DNA from: Torpedo marmorata
Lineage: Eukaryota
Direction: 5' to 3'
DNA length: 64,000 nt
Assembly: GCA_977017645.1 (NCBI GenBank)
Contig: OZ360240.1
Coordinates: forward strand, 14,198,001 to 14,262,000
The notes under the pieces are model-generated. The model worked only from the letters and a program-made list of their open reading frames with translations, did not search any database and had not been told where the DNA came from. This document shows, one piece after another, positions 6,052 through 56,876 of this stretch (its first letter is position 1; every line of letters begins with the position of its first letter). Position numbers and translations under genes: made by a program.

Positions 6052-6323
6052 ATAAATTAAATTAAAATTTTAAATTTTGACATACAGCACTGTAACAGGC
6101 CATTTTGGCCCTACGAGTTCGTGCCGCCCAATTTACACCCCATTAACCTACACCCTGGTACATTTTTGAAAGGTGGGAGGAAACCGGAGCCCCCAGAGAA
6201 AACCCATGCAGACATGGGGAGAACGTACAAACTCCTTACAGACAGCGCGGGATTTGAACCCAGGTCCAGTCCCGATCGCTGGCGCTGTAAAGGCGTTACG
6301 CTAACCGCTACGCCAACCGTGCC
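6052..6323 (-). mobile_element. Full-length V-SINE
   Basis: Head ggcacggttggcgtagcggttagc, V-domain, (aaatt)n-like tail. Confidence 0.9.
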
Positions 6324-6441
6324 GGTTCCATTATTGTCACGTAATACTACATTTATAATGTAACATACATGAAATTCTTTAACTTTGTCTACCGTAAGGA
6401 AGACAGAGAGTCGCTACTTTGTCCAGCGCCCCTCACAGAAA
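6324..6441 (-). mobile_element. SINE 3' tail shared with the 5S-derived SINEs
   Basis: Near-identical to the tails of the copies at 28.7, 29.6, 36.1 and 56.8 kb. Confidence 0.9.
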
Positions 6442-6443
6442 TG

Positions 6444-6516
6444 AGGCCCCAGCGAGGAACGAACTCGCAACCCCTGGTTTACAAGACCAGTGCTCTAACC
6501 ACTGAGCTATGGAGCC
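6444..6516 (-). tRNA. tRNA-Thr(UGU) copy, probably retroposed, serving as the head of a SINE-like chimera
   Basis: GGCTCCATAGCTCAGTGGTTAGAGCACTGGTCTTGTAAACCAGGGGTTGCGAGTTCGTTCCTCGCTGGGGCCT folds into a full cloverleaf with anticodon TGT; A58 replaced by T. Confidence 0.9.
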
Positions 6517-7164
6517 ATCTCATTAAATCAACAATTACGTAAAAGAAACCATTTAACACAGATTTATGTTTTTAAAATGATGAATAACTTTTGAATGTAG
6601 CTAAAATAGTCCAATTCCTATATTGTCTCAATCTACTTGATTAAATTTAAATGGCACTTGGACAATAAAGGTGACATGATATTTTCAGCATCAAATAATT
6701 CCCAAGAATTTAGCTTGACACATCTTCTAATAGTTATCTGACACATAACAGATGATCATTTATACAACAGTCACAGAGTGCAGCAAATATGGGTTTAATT
6801 CGAGCAATGAAACAAAATGGACAGATTGTCAATCACAGCAGAAGAGGCACAGGCTCAGTGCCAAGGATCATACTAGTTCAAAAATAGGGCAAGGTAAAAG
6901 AGTAAACAACTTTCACCTGCTTCTAGATCCACCATATACGTGAATTACAAGCTATTTTTCTTTTAATCATCAAAAAAGTTTTAATCAAGTGCTTTGAAAA
7001 ACATTTATAAAGGCAACTTGAACAAATATCCACAAAGAAATTGTTTAAGGTGGATGTCGCAGACCCTGTTAAAATGACTTTGAGAGTTCATTGAGGCGGA
7101 TGTAACACACATGTTAAAAAGGCATTGAAATGTCACGACGTGGACATAATAGATCTAAAAGTAG

Positions 7165-11426: not shown

Positions 11427-12296
11427 CCGTATATTTCGGCGTATAAGTCGACCCTTGAAACCATCAAAAATGTCTCAAAAAAACGGGGGTCGACTTATAC
11501 GCCAGATATACTTTTGAGACCTTAAAATCAGCTCAAAATCGAGTTCACGCTGATTCGGCGTATAAGTCGACCCCTGAAAACACGATTCGGCGTATAAGTC
11601 GACCCCTGAAAACACGATTCGGCGTATAGGTCGACCCTGGAAGCGCCTCTCCACCGCCGGCGCCGCCTCTCTACGACACCTCCCCATCGCCAGGTGCCGC
11701 CATAAACCACCCAGACATTCTACAATTGTAGAGCCCGAAGTCCCCGCTCCTACCCGGGAGAATGAGCTCCCCGCTCCTGCTTGGAAGAACGAGCTCCCCG
11801 CTCCTGCTTGGGAGAACGAGCTCCCCGCTCCTACCCGGGAGAAAGACGTCCCCGCTCCTACCCGGGAGAACGACGTCCCCGCTCCTACTCGGGAGAAAGA
11901 CGTCCCCTCTCCTGCTCGGGAGAACGAGCTCCCCGCTCCTGCTCGGGAGAAAGACGTCCCCGCTCCTGCTCGGGAGAAAGACGTCGCCGCACCTGCATCT
12001 TCCCGGCCAGAAGCGAAGGTTTTTTTTACTGTTTTTTTTACTTACCGGTACTTGCTTAATTTACAGCTTTGTTACTTGGCAATTGGGATGTTGTAACAAA
12101 TTTTGGGTTGTTGCTGGGAGGCCCAGACAGCCTGAAAATTGGGGGTCGACTTATACGCCGGTCAATGCGCAACATCTCAGGCATCGCGATTTTTGGGGGT
12201 CGACTTATACGTCGGATATACCATAAAACCATTAAATGAGGCTGAAAAAGGGGGGTCGACTTATCTGCCGGTCGACTTATACGCCGAAATATACGG
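11427..12296. mobile_element. Tc1/mariner-superfamily (pogo/Tigger-like) non-autonomous element with an internal minisatellite
   Basis: TA|ccgtatatttcggcgtataagtcgacc ... ggtcgacttatacgccgaaatatacgg|TA; CpG-rich. Confidence 0.88.
11738..11990. repeat. 27-bp GC-rich minisatellite, ~9 copies
   Basis: Unit ~ccccgctcctgctcgggagaacgagct. Confidence 0.95.
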
Positions 12297-21745: not shown

Positions 21746-24700
21746 ATAATTTGTAATATCACTCAACACAACTGATAGGGCACTGTGAAAGCTCCATTTA
21801 AAAGTGCCTTGATTTTACAGTCAGGTTTCAATAACTGGAATGGGAATCTGATTTATATTAAGGAGCTAATGCATAACCTGAAGTCCATGGATGACCAAAT
21901 CATGAAAACCTGAAATTTACCTCCAAATTTGCACCTGAAAAAAAGAACAGGTGACCAGATTTGAATTGTTCTCCTCATGCATTTACTTTTCGCAATAGTT
22001 TAGGAATTAGAAAAAGAATCCAAACTGGAGTCATTGATATTTGACATTCAAACAGAATTTAGTCTGATAAATTCTTGCAACTGGTAAATATCAGTACTCC
22101 AAATTAACAAATTTAACCTCAATCTATGCTGTTTCTTGTGTTATTTGTCTTAAGACTCAAGAAATACGTTCACTCAAACTATCGAATTTCATGACTTGTT
22201 CATGACAATAAATTCTGATTCTGATTCTGAATTATCGTCCTCTACATTTTCAATTTATGTTCTTGAAGTGTGAAGGAAATGCTCCTCCTGAAAATTTAAA
22301 GGGACAATGAAATACAATTGTAAAGAACCATTACCATCAGCAAGTGCATTTATGTAGTGCTTTTAGCACAGCAATATTTTCCAAAAGTGCTTCAGAAGAG
22401 TACTATCAAATAAAATCTGCACAAGGTCACAAGGCAGGCAAACAAGAGCTTTATCAAAGGGGTAGGTTTTAAGGTGGAGCTTAGAGTAAAGACATTGAAA
22501 AGCATTTTGAAATTTTATATTTTGACAAATTTCATATCCATTGGAAAAAACTATATTGAATACAAACTTCGTGTCCGTTGTAATGGATGTTATGAAAAAT
22601 AATAGCAGAGTAGGTAATGACTGAGTAAACAGAAATGTATTATACATCTAACCTTGGACAGTTGACATTTCAAGTTAAAACTGAGAAGGGAATGGAAGAC
22701 AGGCAGTATGAAAGAGGAGATGGGGAAGAGTCAGTAGGTGATAGGTGGGCTGAGGGGTGAAGGATGACAAGCAGATGGAGCCAGACAGAGGGAACGAAGG
22801 AGTGAAGTTGGGGAAGAGGCAGGAGTGACTGATGGAAACAAAGTGGAAAAGTAAATGACAGACGAAACCAGGGCTGGGGGAGGGATGGGTGAAGGTGCAG
22901 ACAGAAGTATGGTACTACCTTGTTCATGAACCCATGCAAAGAGGATTATGACTTGGCTATATATTTCTAACTTGAAACTCCCACGAGATTAAGTTTCTGT
23001 GGGATTTAGCAGTGAATAGTGGCAAGTTGATTTATATTTAAGATAAAATTATGCTTATCTTTAACCTTTCACTTAAAGACTAATTTTACTCTGATCAAGG
23101 ATGTACTTCATGATTTAACAATATTAATTGTACTTCGTAAAAAGATAAACAAACAAATCATCAGCTTTGAACCCAAATCGAGGTACATTTGGACATTAGA
23201 AATTGAAATAGTTACACTGAGGAAAATGAATAAAACTGTACAGGATGGAATGGCGAATAAGCTGGGCATAACCTCTGAGAACAAGTTTAACAGAAACAGG
23301 TTATGCAAATGCTCATCATACCTGATCGTTTGATCTCAAAACAACCCCAAGTTTTTGCTCTGAAGGGCACTTCGATTTTACCTACATTGAAATTTATAGT
23401 GGTTCTTTTAACTGGAAATTCTCGTCTATGCAAGGTTTCCTTAAACATCTTTGATCTTCAGTTGTTCGTGGAAATGACATTTTCCATAACAAACTACTGT
23501 TTTCCAATACAAATCGCATGATGAGCTGTTGCCATAGTGACAGGAACTAGGTCATACCACAAATTCTTTTCATAGCTGGGAACGGCATTACTTAAGAGAA
23601 AAAAAAACTATGGAAATCAGTTAAACTGAACAGAAACATGGCTGATACAGCGACTGCGGTTTCAGTTGAATAAAGAACGAGGCCAAGGATGAAAAAAAGT
23701 CAAATAAAACTGGCAAAGTCCTTAGCACTACCTAATTCAGCGCTCCTTCCACGAGTTATTATCCATTGTTCAGTAACTGTACAAAGATGCAACTCTTGCA
23801 CACACTGAGCCAATTAGCACTTGTATGAGTGTGATGCTGCCCTCCCCCTTCACCAATTGCACTACTGCACATTTAAAGGATGTCCTTTATAGAAGTATTT
23901 CAGGCCTTTGCCCAAATGTTTGTTCATCTTTTGATGCCTTGTATTCCAAACCAGTTTTGTTGCAATTGAGGTTCAATGGAGCAGATATACCGGTAGTCAA
24001 TTCTCCCTCCTCCTCTACATTCCAACTCATTGTATCAGTAAATTCTCCCAACTCCTGCACATTCCAATTCATTGTGTGAGTAACATCAATGTGGGAGGAT
24101 AGGAAGAAGCAATGTTTTTTTTTTAAACTTGTGTTTGGCACAAGAACTTCTGCAAAATTAGAGTATGATTTTTGAATTTTGAACTACAATTAATGTAAGA
24201 TTAACTAGATGTTTTTACAAACATCTTAACCATAGTTATCCACTGTGAACGAAACAATAAATTGGGAGTTGCAATAATAGTGCAATGAGAGCACAAATTA
24301 ATGCTCTGAGATTCTGCACATGTAATTATACAATTGAGCTATACAGTACAACATATCAGTGTAGGGGAAAAAGATGGTTGATAGGAAAATAAGCGACAGG
24401 GTGATCCATGGCAATGGTGACATGTACCCAGAAAACCCAATATCAACAATCATTTGCAGCCAATGCTACAATGGTCTTGTCCTGTCCATCCCTAATTCTC
24501 TCTTTAATCAATACCATATGTCTAGGTGATGGTGGAAGTGACATTAATCAGATTGGACAACCATGAAGCACATTTAAGCTCGTCTATCAGCAGAAAAATA
24601 AAGTGCCACTTCACGTTTTTGGGTGATGACAATTCAATTGTCAACTCCCAAAAAGCAGCTGTCAAATTTGGAGTGTTTTTACAATGAACTCGTGGACAGC

Positions 24701-28710: not shown

Positions 28711-28947
28711 GTAAAGGTAAAGGTTCCATTATTGTCACGTAATACTACATTTAGAATGTAACATACATGAAATTCTTTAATTTTTGTCTACCGTAAGGCA
28801 GACAAAAGTCGCTACTTTTGTCCAGCGCCCCTCACAGAAACCTACAGCACCTGGTGTTCCTAGGCGGTCTCCCCTCCAAGTACTGACCAGTCCTGTGCCT
28901 GCTTAGCTTCCGAGATCAGACAATCCCAGTCGCGTGCAGGCTATTGG
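28711..28947 (-). mobile_element. 5S rRNA-derived SINE (SINE3-type), copy A
   Basis: Head tctgatctcggaagctaagcagg...gtacttggagggagaccgcctaggaacaccaggtgctgtagg matches 5S rRNA; tail ends in (TTTACC)n. Confidence 0.9.
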
Positions 28948-29487
28948 ATCTGTACATAGCCGATGTCGCCCTGCCAGTGGTGCGATAACACATCATAGAG
29001 CCATAGGATTCTCAGCAATACGTCACAGCAGCAGTACATTCTGCCAGAGTGCTTAATATGGCTATGTCCTCATAGCATCAGATACACAAGATATATTTTA
29101 TTTACCAAGTGCAGACACACATTATGACAGATCACTTCTCTTCCAAATGCTTATTTGTTGGCGTTTCTAACCCGTTTGTCCACTGGCCAACTTATTTTAT
29201 TGAAAAAAAACATTTAGATACTTTTTATACCATAAATTACAGTGGAGAATAAATAACCATGTTAATCAGCAAACTGTAATCCAAGTTTTCTTCCAGACTT
29301 AACTGTTCCAAAGCCTCTCCTCTCAACTTCCTCCAGCAGCCCTCCCATCGTCGCAACTTCTTCCAAATATTTCCAACGCGCAACTTCTAAAAATTGCCGT
29401 TGTGCTTGCTGACCTTCATTGATTTCCTGTCAGACAACGCTTTTATTTTAAAATTCTCACCCTTGTTTACACGTTCTCTCCATGGTA

Positions 29488-29733
29488 CAGCACCAATAAC
29501 CTGAATACGACTGGGATTGTCTGATCTCAGTAGCTAAGCAGGCACAGGACTGGTCAGTACTTGGAGGGAAGACCGCCTCGGAACACCAGGTGCTGTAGGT
29601 TTCTGTGAGGGGCACTGGACAAAATAGCGACCCTCTGTCTGCCTTATGGTAGACAAAAAAATTAAAGAATTTCATGTATGTTACATTCTAAATGTAGAAT
29701 TACGTGACAATAATGGAACCTTTACCTTTTACC
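29488..29733 (+). mobile_element. 5S rRNA-derived SINE, copy B
   Basis: As copy A, opposite strand. Confidence 0.9.
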
Positions 29734-34951: not shown

Positions 34952-35746
34952 TCAGATCAGATACTATTTATTGTCATGTCATAAAACAGAAATGTAAGAT
35001 TACACAAAATTGCCTTTAGTCTGCCGTAAGGCAGACAAAGATTTTCCATTAGCATTGCCCGGCACCCCTTACAGTCAGAAAAAGAGAAACAAAAGCGAGT
35101 CGCCTCAGAGTCACCAGGTGTCCATGGATTCACCTCCAGTCCTCCCGCAGCCTCTGCAGCCGCACAAGACTCCAGTTCAGTTCACACCATCAGCAACCCG
35201 AGCCCAGATCCAAACCTCAGACACAATGAGGAAGCCTTCAGCGCCCAGGGCCATTCAAGAGCCCTTCTTGCCCTCAGCATCCTCTTGAATTCCAGTTTTG
35301 ATAAATGGTTCTCATGACCCAGTCTCCAGTAGCCCGCAGCCTGGTGAGAGTCCATTGACCTCAAGGCGCCAACAGCCCATGTGGGTTTATTGCCCACTAG
35401 TCACCAACAGCTCGCTGCCCATGTGTCCTTCAGCTGCAGAGCCCCTCGCTGGTCCGCCACCGTGGTCACCTTTGGGTCATCACCCTGCCTCTCTTTCTCC
35501 TGTTACTGGTGCCCTGCGCTAGTCCGCTGCTCCCCCAGAGTCTGGAACCCTTCGTGGCCGCTGCTGAACACAGGCGCCGCCATCTTGGGCCCAGACCCCA
35601 CGGTCGCAGGATTTTAAATAAAATACTGCCGGCAGTAGGACTGGGTGGTAGGACCCCTGCGGGGGAGCACTGTGTCTCCGCTCCCCGCCCTCCCAGGGTC
35701 CGCACCAGCGCCGCCGTTACAGCAGCTCCGCAGTGCCACCATTTTG
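34952..35746 (-). mobile_element. Non-autonomous retroelement: GC-rich LINE-5'-like leader plus shared stem-loop tail
   Basis: aagatggcggcgcc motif (35573-35587); tail hairpin gtctgcc-gtaa-ggcagac (35019-35036); ends catgacaataaa. Confidence 0.65.
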
Positions 35747-36055: not shown

Positions 36056-36308
36056 GGTAAAGGTAAAGGTAAAGGTAAAGGTTCCATTATTGTCACGTAA
36101 TACTACATTTAGAATGTAACATACATGAAATTCTTTAATTTTTGTCTACCGTAAGGCAGACAGAGAGTCGCTATTTTGTCCAGCGCCTCACAGAAACCTA
36201 CAGCATCTGGTGTTCCTTGGCGGTCTCCCCTCCAAGTACTGACCAGTCCTGTGCCTGCTTAGCTTCCGAGATCAGACAATCCCAGTCGTATTCAGGCTAT
36301 TGGTGCTG
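36056..36308 (-). mobile_element. 5S rRNA-derived SINE, copy C
   Basis: 5S head plus tail ending in four TTTACC units. Confidence 0.92.
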
Positions 36309-38340
36309 AGGAAGACCATTTACCATACGTTCACCGGCCAGAAACCAAGGGCCGCCCCACTTTGCAGCAGGTAATTCGTTCTCAAATGTCGATGGTTTTC
36401 AGCCTCACTCTATTGATCCATCTTATGTGCAGATGCTAAACTTTCCATTAAATGTTGCTATCTTCAGTTCTATCATTTGAAAGAATCAACCGTGGCCTTC
36501 AAAAGGTAAAGGGAAAACACTTGATGCACAATGAGCATCACAATTAAGGCAGCCATTGTACAAAAGAAGGCACATCAAACTGCTCAGTCAAATTCTAATG
36601 ACATTTAAACAATATTCTCAGATCCAATTTTTACTCCAATGTTTTTCGACCCATTTGTGTCCCCAAGTTAAAATTGCTGTTACCTATGGTCAAAAAGCTA
36701 TTGACATGCAGCCTGCAGCATTGTCACAAGTATCATCAATAGCACGCCAATTTGGGCTGGCTCACTAAAGGAGGTAGGAATTTAGGAAATCTAAATATGC
36801 AACATGGACTGTTTGGGCATCCTCAAAATTAATTCTGCCCCTTACTTTACTGAAGGTATTTTATCATTCGAGAACACTTGACCGAAATTGTGATCTAACT
36901 CCAATCAAAATATGATGTGAAGGGGAAAGAGACAAAAGAAAAGTCACCACAGCAACCACATGAAATCCTGATTCAATGCAACACTCAATATGTAGACGAA
37001 AAACTTAATATTTTGTTTAGTCATTTACAGGATGTGGCAAGAACAGTACATTTTTACCCATCCCTAATTGCCCTTGAAAGGAAATGCTGATTCAACTTCT
37101 GGAACACTTGGTGTAATAGAAATAGTTACAGTGTTATTAGTCTGAGAAATCCAAGATTTTGACTGCAACGCTGAAGGAAAAGAGATCATTTCCAACTCAG
37201 AGTGGTGTAGGACTTGAGAATTATCTCTGGGAAGTGATATGTTGCATCTTCCCACGCAATAGCAGCTCTTATCCTTCTTGTAATCCTTCATGATTTAAGA
37301 GCCTCTAAGAAGCCATGCAGAGTAGCGGCAAAACCCTTTATTCAAATCAAGACCAAAACACCTCCCACATGAATTACTGGTGTATTTCTTAACTGAGTTA
37401 CGAGTTAGTACTCGTCAGCAAACATGAAATTCCATCTGGCATGAAGGGAAACTGACCAAGGAAGTAGCTAAACGTGGTTGGATCTGTCTGTACAACCACA
37501 ACAATAATCCTTTGTTGCTGATTAAGATTCCAGCCTGTTAACTGCATTAACCCCCCCCCCCCCCACAATTCCCAGAAACTTCAATTGAACCATACTTGGA
37601 CCAGTTATGGAACGAGATCAGGATACAAGTTAACCAAAAATGACAAGTTGGCCATGTGCAAGTCAGGAGTTATGGGGATCAGGTAAGAAATGGGAGCTGA
37701 ACATCAAATCAGCCATGACCTTATTGAATGGCAAAGCAGGCTAGAAGAGCTGTGTGACTTACTCCCACTTCTACTTTTGTGCTGGTCTTACAGCAGCAGA
37801 CTTCTCTAACATTATTTGAGAGCAATTTACAACTGATGCACAGATCGCCACTCACCCCATTTCATCACCACTTTCTAAAGCAAATAACTAATTTCTGCAA
37901 AAAGTGACAATAAACGCAAGCCAATTATTTTGTCGTCAAAATAAGCTCTTCTCTCTATGGCCTGCTAAATAAACTGAACTAGTGTTTCAATATACCTCGC
38001 CCGCAGGAAAAAGAATCTCAGTGTTGTATGTGATGTCATGTATTGTATGCACTGACAATAAATCTGAAATCTGAATCTGAATATGCAGAATGTATCCACA
38101 GACTAAGACAAATTTTTAAAGCAGGAACACCAATCAAGAAATTGAACATTTGACCATCAATACATTAGTTGAATATACTTATTTAATATTCATTATAGTG
38201 TAATAGAATGTATTCATCGCATCTAAAACTTGCTTGGGCAGATAAAAAATTTGGAACATGCCTCAAACATTTCAAACTTCACAAACAGTACCCAAAATCA
38301 GCTTACAAATCCATGAAACAAAATTGAGGTCAGAGACTAT

Positions 38341-38923: not shown

Positions 38924-39282
38924 ATTGTTGTGACCCAGCAAAATCCAACTTTAACTTTCTGAAGGTTCTTCTGGAGTCATCAGTTCTTTTCCCATTTTGA
39001 TACCATCAATTCTGTTCAAAGTGGACTCCAATATCAATGTCATTAGACTAAATCAGTTCCCCATATGGAACAGATGCTGCAGAAATCTCATCTCTCCAAA
39101 CAGAACAAGAACCATAACTCTGTTGCTGACTAATAAACACATCACTACCATTCCTCCAGTTAAACAAAACATCAGAAAACCAGATGAAGGGCTACAAGAA
39201 ACCAAACTATTAAAAAAATGACAGGAATGAAAGCAAGCATTCACCACTGCAGAAGATCAGTCTAGTGCTACATTGCGTGGCT

Positions 39283-39480
39283 GAGGGAGTGCTGGAGGCA
39301 AAGCCACGGACACTCAGTGACTCTGAGGGGACTCTCTTTTGCTTCTCTTTCTCTGGTTGTAAGGGGCGCTGGGCAATTTTTGCTGATAGCGAATCTTTGT
39401 CCGCCTTACAGTAGACTAAAGGAAATTTCGTGCAATATCACATTTTCTGTTATATTACATGACAATAAAATAATCTTGAA
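39283..39480 (+). mobile_element. 5'-truncated copy of the 34.95-35.75 kb retroelement
   Basis: gtgactctgagggactctcttttgcttctc...aaggggcgctgggcaa...gtccgccttacagtagac...catgacaataaa. Confidence 0.7.
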
Positions 39481-55342: not shown

Positions 55343-56641
55343 TCCAAAATAAACCAAGATTGCAATGATCATTTAGAAGTGGATCTTTTTCATCTCAAAT
55401 ATTTCACCTTCCTTCTCCCCCAGTCCCAAACTTGACATCACATCACCATGTGTGATTGGACTCTGGAAACTGGCACTGGATGAGATTAACGCAATGTTCA
55501 GCTCTCAGGGTGTACAATGCATAACTGCATAGCAATTCCCACTCCAGAACAACAATCTTGTGATAAGCAAATAATTAACTGGTGCAGCAATCTAATGTTT
55601 ACCGGGGACTTTGTCACAGCAGCATGCAGGCCAGCTAAATGCACTTTAAACAAATAGCCTCAAAATATGCAACCAACGATGCCACTTATACCATTGCAAT
55701 TTGTGTACTGACCTTGGTCAGCTGCTTGTAACAAAAGGAATGTGGATTTTAAAAACTTCAAACAATATTATTCATAATTAGATCAGCAATCAAAAACATG
55801 TTATGCACTTTAACATCCAGTTGAAAGAACACGTCATGTGCCTAAGTATGCTCACGAGTTACTCTATACAAATATAGGAACAAAAACACCTGGAACTCAT
55901 CAACATCATCCACAAGATTTTCTCCATGAGGCATATAGAACCCATAAAAGATTTTTACTCAGCAAACCATTTCTTTCAGGCCTGAGGTCACCAACACTAA
56001 TGAGAATGCGTGTCTGTGTACTTCCATGGTTATTATCTACTCATCCCCTCCCCCATCTCCAACATTGCCAAAGGTTCATTGCCACCAAAATGCAAAAGTA
56101 AATGGCAACTTCCAAAATAAAAACTTTCCTTGCAGTCTCAGAAAAGAAATTTCACAACCTTAAAAATAAACCAACATTTAACAATCTCATTTTGTCTTGA
56201 CATGGGCAGAAAATGCCCCAAGGGGTTTCACAAATATTCAACAAAACCAGATGCCTTGTGAAAGTAAAGAATGGGAGTGGTGACCAAAAGTTCAAAAGAG
56301 TTTCATTACAAATAATGTTTTGAGTGGAAAGGAAGACGACTTGATAGTGAAATAAAAATGGGAGTAGAACCACAGCAAACAACGGCAGAGTATGAAGAAT
56401 TCAGCAGAGCTAAAAGTCAGACCAGAGTTTCAAACTAGGAGAGCAGAAGCAGGTACAATAGATGAGGAACAACAAGGCAGAAAAGACAACAGTCCATGCA
56501 TTTATATTTGTTTATATTCAGGTCAAGGTGCTTTGAAATCAAGAGCATTCGCCACAACAGAAATAGACTATCATTACAAAGTATGTACATACCCAGATAT
56601 GCTTAAAACACACTTGTTTGTAATCAGAAACACAAAATTAA

Positions 56642-56876
56642 CAATAGCCTGAATACGACTGGGATTGTCTGATCTCGGATGCTAAGCAGGCACAGGACTG
56701 GTCAGTACTTGGAGGGGAGACTGCCTAGGAACACCAGGTGCTGTAGGTTTCTGTGAGGGGTGCTGGACAAAGTAGTGACTCTCTGTCTGCCTTACGGTAG
56801 ACAAAAATTAAAGAATTTCATGTCTGTTACATTCTAAATGTAGTATTACGTGACAGTAATGGAACCTTTACCTTTA
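56642..56876 (+). mobile_element. 5S rRNA-derived SINE, copy D
   Basis: 5S head plus shared tail. Confidence 0.9.

Follow-up and report, generated by a model that had tools for sequence, protein, structure and literature searches.

The minus strand of the window, by which we mean the whole 64,000-nucleotide stretch of Torpedo marmorata DNA analysed here, carries at 6052-6516 a tRNA-Thr-like sequence, a SINE tail and a V-SINE-type element joined in a row. The locus raises the question of whether this is a SINE caught at birth or one member of a tRNA-Thr SINE family, and of how a T came to stand at position 58 of its tRNA head. The explanation that we consider probable as a whole combines a head swap of single origin giving rise to a family (Thr-SINE), T58 in its founder and, at this locus, a one-off capture at a V-SINE.

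Layout of the window element

The tRNA-Thr(UGU)-derived head occupies positions 6444..6516 (minus strand). ARAGORN called a tRNA-Thr(tgt) at 6443-6516 (-) and the Rfam model RF00005 matched 6444-6516 with 67.6 bits (E 1.4e-12), both in agreement with the cloverleaf originally predicted from 6516 to 6444. The T-loop reads TTCGTTC, which places a T at position 58 (window 6459, in the B box) with T59 next to it. This head had been called near-pristine with a T at 58; a second difference from the genes was found at 6469, where C48 is changed to T (compared with gene L150). In front of the head, a leader slot of 2-3 bases (6517..6519, minus strand) holds GAT in the window copy and (A)GT in many full-length copies. 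The element does not qualify as a functional tRNA-Thr gene, as it carries T58 and is followed by TTTCT only.

Directly after the head, the sequence reads CA and then TTTCTGTG. The five bases CATTT (6439..6443, minus strand) are likely the start of a pre-tRNA 3' trailer, their TTT being common to the start of the 118-nt tail (6324..6441, minus strand). The same tail is found in a 5S-headed SINE, of which the window contains four copies, at 28839-28957 (-), 29483-29601 (+), 36195-36313 (-) and about 56640-56875 (+). The window tail matches these at 91-94% and begins where it does behind their heads, as had been noticed; each copy sits directly behind a 5S-like head, and Rfam recognised 5S in three of the four. 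Four such copies in 64 kb are far above the genome-wide density of 2-5 per Mb, as estimated from flanks. The tail of the window copy has one private change, at 6356, and ends at GGAACC without the terminal (TTTACC)n, as originally described; the first bases of the TTTACC repeat are present behind the tail in 26/30 and 25/30 sampled family copies. Overall, the window copy equals the majority sequence of subfamily A (see below) except for one base.

The remaining part (6052..6323, minus strand) is a V-SINE-type element of a young subfamily with an A/T-rich run at its end, the name V-SINE being used on the strength of a motif that we take to be diagnostic. It had been described as joined from its first base, whereas about 3-4 bases of the usual GGGC start are missing. 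Its central segment resembles what we take to be the V domain. Like the V-SINE HE1 of sharks and rays, which is moved by HER1 (a pairing tabulated in PMC3747384), it has a tRNA-like head.

No coding partner LINE was found among the 30 examined of 493 matches. The tail is 69-81% like the last 110 bases of an abundant non-coding repeat of ~810 nt, present in the window at 34967-35616 (-) and 39279-39480 (+) and elsewhere at loci L123, L130 and L278. This repeat, whose start is well defined and which terminates in ATCTTGA-type repeats, is likely a non-autonomous element related to the partner LINE. Vertebrate SINE3 elements are described as moved by CR1-clade elements (PMC7245038). The window also contains minisatellites at 11552-11637, 11740-11996 and 23995-24083, with periods of 32, 27 and 42.

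A dispersed tRNA-Thr SINE family and its head/tail junction

A genome search with window 6280-6530 as query returned 39 other loci matching at 98-99% over head and tail, each stopping where the V-SINE starts in the window; the flanks were unrelated in the 29 loci that were fetched. A 31-base pattern covering the T-arm and the junction, with any base allowed at position 58, gave 528 exact matches against 0 for the control. A second pattern, in which C62 was required, gave 140 matches, and among the 100 listed 99 were Thr-headed and one was a 5S copy. A third, with the gene-like C48, gave 33 matches, corresponding to 30 SINE copies with T58, two genes and one pre-tRNA fusion. The corresponding subfamilies were named A, B and C. 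After correction for divergence we estimate a total of 1,000-1,500 Thr-SINE copies, with a firm lower bound of ~650. The idea of a unique three-part chimera, a new SINE seen at birth, which holds for the tail/V-SINE join only, is refuted by hundreds of dispersed head-and-tail copies in three subfamilies; the second option offered by the original prediction, a tRNA-Thr SINE family, is borne out by the same data.

Subfamily A has T48 in 29/30 copies, and 14/30 of its copies align from position 1. Subfamily B has C62 in 29/30 copies, with G52 in 17/30, which restores the T-stem pair with C62, and mostly C8 and C48 (C8 in 16/24 scored copies). Subfamily C keeps C48 as in the gene, and its 5' end often reads GCCCCC. 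The non-CpG divergence of the tails is 1.44% in A, 1.45% in B and 2.75% in C, values that are underestimates since the samples were picked by exact patterns. A letter of the 5S-SINE tail is retained in 6/22 scored copies of C, 1/29 of A and 0/25 of B. Because its tails are the most divergent and it has kept this letter most often, C is the oldest subfamily. Four copies (L160, L161, L163 and L167) make up a small sub-lineage: they share an ACA leader and four duplicated bases at the discriminator, which points to another source copy. Another copy (L166) is preceded by its T-arm region in inverted orientation. No other tRNA head on the Thr-SINE tail was seen among the 100 listed of the 140 matches, a search that is not exhaustive because its pattern needed C62.

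Several features of a SINE2 are present: the 5' head derives from a tRNA and has an A box as well as a B box (the latter altered at 58), the many dispersed copies start alike and lie in unrelated surroundings, and the family has a 3' simple repeat, (TTTACC)n, missing in the window copy. The 5S rRNA head typical of SINE3 is absent from the window element and present in the tail donor copies according to Rfam. No description of the family was found in the literature searched, which leaves aside repeat databases and most subscription papers; Thr-SINE is a real and young tRNA-Thr SINE family, probably uncatalogued.

The tail common to the 5S-headed copies supports the replacement of a head on a 5S-SINE tail, as had been proposed. 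The captured RNA had been thought to be a mature tRNA, with CA as a CCA remnant. Six pre-tRNA-Thr retrocopies fused to V-SINEs were found, and in two of them (L137 and L148) the trailer starts with CATTT. The 4-base leader of L137 and the greater part of its trailer recur in gene L150; the leader of L148 is AGT, as in many SINE copies. The trailers of the three true genes found start with CGCGC, TATTT (L150) and TGGAC. As none of these has a CATTT trailer, the parent pre-tRNA is deduced from the retrocopies. We infer that CA is likely the start of the pre-tRNA trailer CATTT, whose TTT overlaps the start of the 5S-SINE tail. Capture of a mature, CCA-bearing tRNA-Thr with the loss of one C at the jump would fit a CA just one letter short of CCA, as well as the m1A58 modification, which is complete in mature tRNA. 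We consider it quite unlikely, since the CATTT trailers account for all five bases without any loss, T or (A)GT precedes position 1 in many copies, CCA is absent from 45 of 46 tRNA::V-SINE fusions (see below) and C32, an m3C site of mature tRNA-Thr, is unchanged.

In the pre-tRNA reading, the reverse transcriptase of a LINE, while at work on the RNA of a 5S-headed SINE, would have jumped, likely once, to an unprocessed pre-tRNA-Thr at the common TTT, and the join would have swapped the T-rich terminator of the gene for TTTCT, presumably a weak Pol III stop. The junction TTTCT has repeatedly been swapped for C-rich variants, both in Thr-SINEs (L111, L112, L134, L140, L291 and L310) and in 5S copies (L279, L282, L284, L287 and L288); such variants would lose the weak terminator and strengthen the local hairpin.

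The exchange of SINE heads by template switch or recombination is described in PMC7245038 and PMC5499810, and hagfish SINE1-1_EBu, derived from SINE2-1_EBu, as well as CmiSINE and SacSINE1-CM of the elephant shark likewise have a new Pol III head on an existing SINE tail. Unlike those SINE2 elements as described, Thr-SINE has a head that differs from a living gene by just one or two bases and a trailer remnant that is still visible; the swap runs from a 5S head to a tRNA head, and the tail follows the head without an intervening body domain. With SINE3, represented by the tail donor in which Rfam recognised a 5S head, Thr-SINE shares the 118-nt tail, but it is devoid of 5S sequence except possibly the TTT.

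Pre-tRNA fusions and the join to the V-SINE

A pattern composed of a B box, a T-run and the V-SINE start gave 149 matches in the genome against 26 for the control. Among the 100 matches listed (L169-L268), 46 were tRNA::V-SINE fusions of many tRNA types, the types beyond the ARAGORN calls being presumptive assignments of our own. Their trailers extend over 7-30 bases up to the V-SINE motif, the tRNA is 5'-truncated in some, and ARAGORN called introns in some others (L212 and L260). Chance adjacency would need ~65,000 tRNA-like loci. Further pre-tRNA::V-SINE fusions were seen at L137, L143, L145, L146, L148 and L153. In the six Thr fusions, no 400-base flank common to a retrocopy and the compared genes was found, and insertion of V-SINEs targeted to tRNA terminators, checked in these six cases only, is less likely.

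Comparable chimeras are described as U6/L1, U6/L2, U6/Mon-1 and Alu/L1, in which a sense Pol III RNA is found at the 5' end of a retroelement as the result of one insertion (PMC4476161, PMC11838501). The V-SINE fusions are alike in that a Pol III RNA is joined in sense to the retroelement 5' end, and different in that the acceptor is a near-full-length SINE. Human tRNA/L1 chimeras are described as mostly half-length and antisense (PMC11838501), whereas in the fusions found here most of the captured RNAs are complete pre-tRNAs in sense orientation that include their trailers and, in some cases, introns.

The direct join of tail and V-SINE in the window is unique in the genome. Both parts have the same orientation and are joined directly at the 5' end of the acceptor, as in template switching. 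A looser tail/V-SINE pattern gave nine matches, eight of them with a real tail; two of these eight are Thr-headed (the window copy and L269), four have 5S heads and two have lost their head. The other joins of Thr-SINE to a V-SINE are L269 and L267. The latter (G000:C48:75793379, minus strand) has a gene-like Thr head with C48 and T58, ends with CATTTCT and is fused there to the V-SINE. It fits an RNA terminated at CATTTCT, which would be a short transcript of Thr-SINE or else a pre-tRNA scarred independently.

Two scenarios were weighed for the window join. While a V-SINE was being inserted, it may have picked up a Thr-SINE RNA at its 5' end, as pre-tRNAs apparently were picked up at dozens of loci. 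Alternatively, two separate insertions may have occurred next to each other, in which case the terminal repeat and the initial bases of the V-SINE were lost at insertion or, through a small deletion at a shared C, later on. The uniqueness of the join speaks for two insertions, as does the number of neighbours, which by a rough estimate is no higher than chance for all tails and not clearly higher for Thr tails: with 45.8 V-SINE starts per Mb (from 414 kb of flanks), ~0.57 Thr-tail/V-SINE neighbours are expected and two were seen (p 0.11, assuming ~800 intact Thr tails), and for all tails eight joins were seen against a very rough expectation of ~21. CpG bases are decayed at 6/43 sites in the V part and 0/14 in the Thr part, which would also fit insertions of different age, but the difference is not significant (p 0.32). 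For all sites, decay amounts to 8/246 and 1/193, respectively (p 0.08), the V part being somewhat more decayed; both comparisons are compatible with a single age for the two parts. CpG decay is alike in the two families (8.2% and 76/1052). No clear target-site duplication was found around the whole unit, where only a 7-base A/T-rich match lies near both ends. Against two insertions stand the same orientation and the almost intact V-SINE 5' end, as in the 46 pre-tRNA fusions, and the two further Thr-SINE joins. We favour co-insertion, because the repeat is missing, the V-SINE start is near-intact and the class of Pol III RNA fusions is large. A single co-insertion of Thr-SINE and V-SINE is thereby rated as somewhat probable, and two separate insertions as a tenable alternative that falls a little short of an even chance.

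Position 58 and the possible escape of a tRNA-like head

The three true tRNA-Thr genes found (L141, L147 and L150) all have C48, A58 and a T-run terminator (T4 or longer), so that T58 is not simply the state of the genes, which would have spoken against a reverse-transcription scar. In the SINE copies, T58 is present in 524/528 matches of the A pattern, in 98/99 Thr-type matches listed for B and in 30/30 for C. The non-T copies among the 528 comprise three A, one C and no G, where the background at other T sites predicts 2.0, 5.3 and 1.6. As these fit the background, T58 was already fixed in the source that the copies share and did not arise anew with every insertion; it is a founder change, inherited by all descendants.

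The origin of the founder change is less clear-cut. According to Hauenschild et al. (PMC4787781), the modified base m1A yields a strong T signal in reverse transcription when U comes next, and the scar fits by site and by letter, since m1A-U reads as T and U59 adjoins position 58. This A to T signature is known from sequencing, in vitro and with a laboratory enzyme (PMC4787781), whereas here it would be an inherited germline event produced by a LINE enzyme. We give roughly an even chance to the founder T58 having arisen as a single m1A58 misreading scar.

For an independent estimate, position 58 was masked in the 100 listed matches of the B box, T-run and V-SINE start pattern while these were classified. 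This blind tally of the 46 fusions gave 42 A58, two T and two G. In the V-SINEs attached to these fusions, 7.8% (mean) or ~5% (median) of A sites are mismatched, against which the four non-A cases are no significant excess (Fisher p 0.78; binomial p 0.20 for the 5% rate). A was kept in 13/14 fusions with U after position 58, the exception being L267, which is probably SINE-derived. General m1A58 scarring of retrocopies was thus rejected, the blind tally showing no significant excess. Since most fusions in it keep A58, scarring would be at most a minority outcome for the fusion enzyme and those young RNAs. T58 heads lacking the SINE tail were also considered as independent scars: of 13 matches, 12 were SINE copies whose junction varies or that contain an inversion; the remaining one (L156) is a head with C8 and T48 that breaks off after CA. 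The literature search returned nothing on m1A58 scars in retrocopies.

The rival view is that T58 arose in an early source copy by ordinary mutation, without any misreading, and was kept because it weakened the tRNA fold and let the RNA escape RNase P and tRNase Z. The tertiary pairs of tRNA are 8-14, 15-48 and 54-58, and the later changes of the family also fall at such positions (T48 in A, C8 in B), while the T stem was meanwhile restored in B. The lack of a significant excess at 58 in independent pre-tRNA fusions points the same way. Conversely, 58 is the only tallied position at which the majority head of C, the oldest subfamily, differs from the gene, and A58 to T is the very transversion predicted for m1A-U (PMC4787781). 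A looser set chosen by eye, and not blind, gave 8/54 non-A (p 0.005 against 5%, p 0.057 against 7.8%). We place this alternative just under even odds, and T58 is about as likely to have come from m1A58 misreading as from ordinary mutation. A further model, in which the sources are A58 copies with a working B box whose RNA is misread at each insertion, T58 offspring being weaker sources, finds some support in the conservation of A58 in the B box (10.1101/2025.06.09.658696) and in seven existing A58 SINE copies (among them the six loci L134, L135, L136, L142, L149 and L151, two of which are a duplicated pair). It is very improbable, as it demands more than 99% misreading to a single letter in three subfamilies, whereas A58 copies are at background level (three seen, 2.0 expected) and absent among the B and C SINE matches listed, and pre-tRNA fusions mostly keep A.

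Whatever its origin, T58 may have helped the RNA to persist as a fusion. The sequence T3CT terminates less than 10% of transcription by human Pol III in vitro (PMC3141230). With TTTCT as a weak stop, transcription from the tRNA promoter would read through into the LINE-type tail, making the fusion copyable. The B box has a conserved A at position 58 (10.1101/2025.06.09.658696). In its text, a study of the yeast TFIIIC structure names base contacts that correspond to positions 52, 53, 55, 56, 57 and 61, and not to 58 (PMC11724288; the numbering was converted here). Three subfamilies have spread with T58 although A58 is conserved in the B box, and tolerance of T58 by Pol III is plausible. The sharp 5' ends and the end of L267 at the weak terminator are indirect signs that the family may be transcribed by Pol III.

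T58 would also loosen the tRNA fold and may shield the RNA from tRNA-processing nucleases. In folding predictions (z -2.26), the cloverleaf (-61.7 kcal/mol) scores about as well as an alternative built on the junction hairpin (-63.5 kcal/mol), and the folding was given no weight as evidence. The fixed changes C8 and T48 hit tertiary pairs while the stems were kept, which suggests that the near-perfect tRNA head may escape processing; the literature search returned nothing on the escape of SINEs from tRNA processing. The full chain of events, in which m1A58 was misread once by a LINE reverse transcriptase in the germline, the fold was loosened, the RNA survived processing and a family of about a thousand copies was founded, is possible but rather doubtful.

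The head of a SINE is usually so decayed that its origin can no longer be traced. With the gene, the trailer, the donor SINE and three subfamilies found in one genome, the passage from pre-tRNA to SINE can in this case be followed almost base by base. Head exchange and chimeric insertion are mechanisms already known; it is the origin of the family that is unusually legible. In practice, about a thousand Thr-SINE copies are liable to be miscalled as tRNA-Thr(UGU) genes, ARAGORN having called a tRNA in seven of the ten copies that it was given. The family raises two testable questions, namely how a near-perfect tRNA head stays uncut from its tail and whether marks of RNA modification can be inherited through retrotransposition. 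If T58 is truly such a fossil, the pre-tRNA::V-SINE fusions of this genome would be an archive in which modification scars may be counted position by position.
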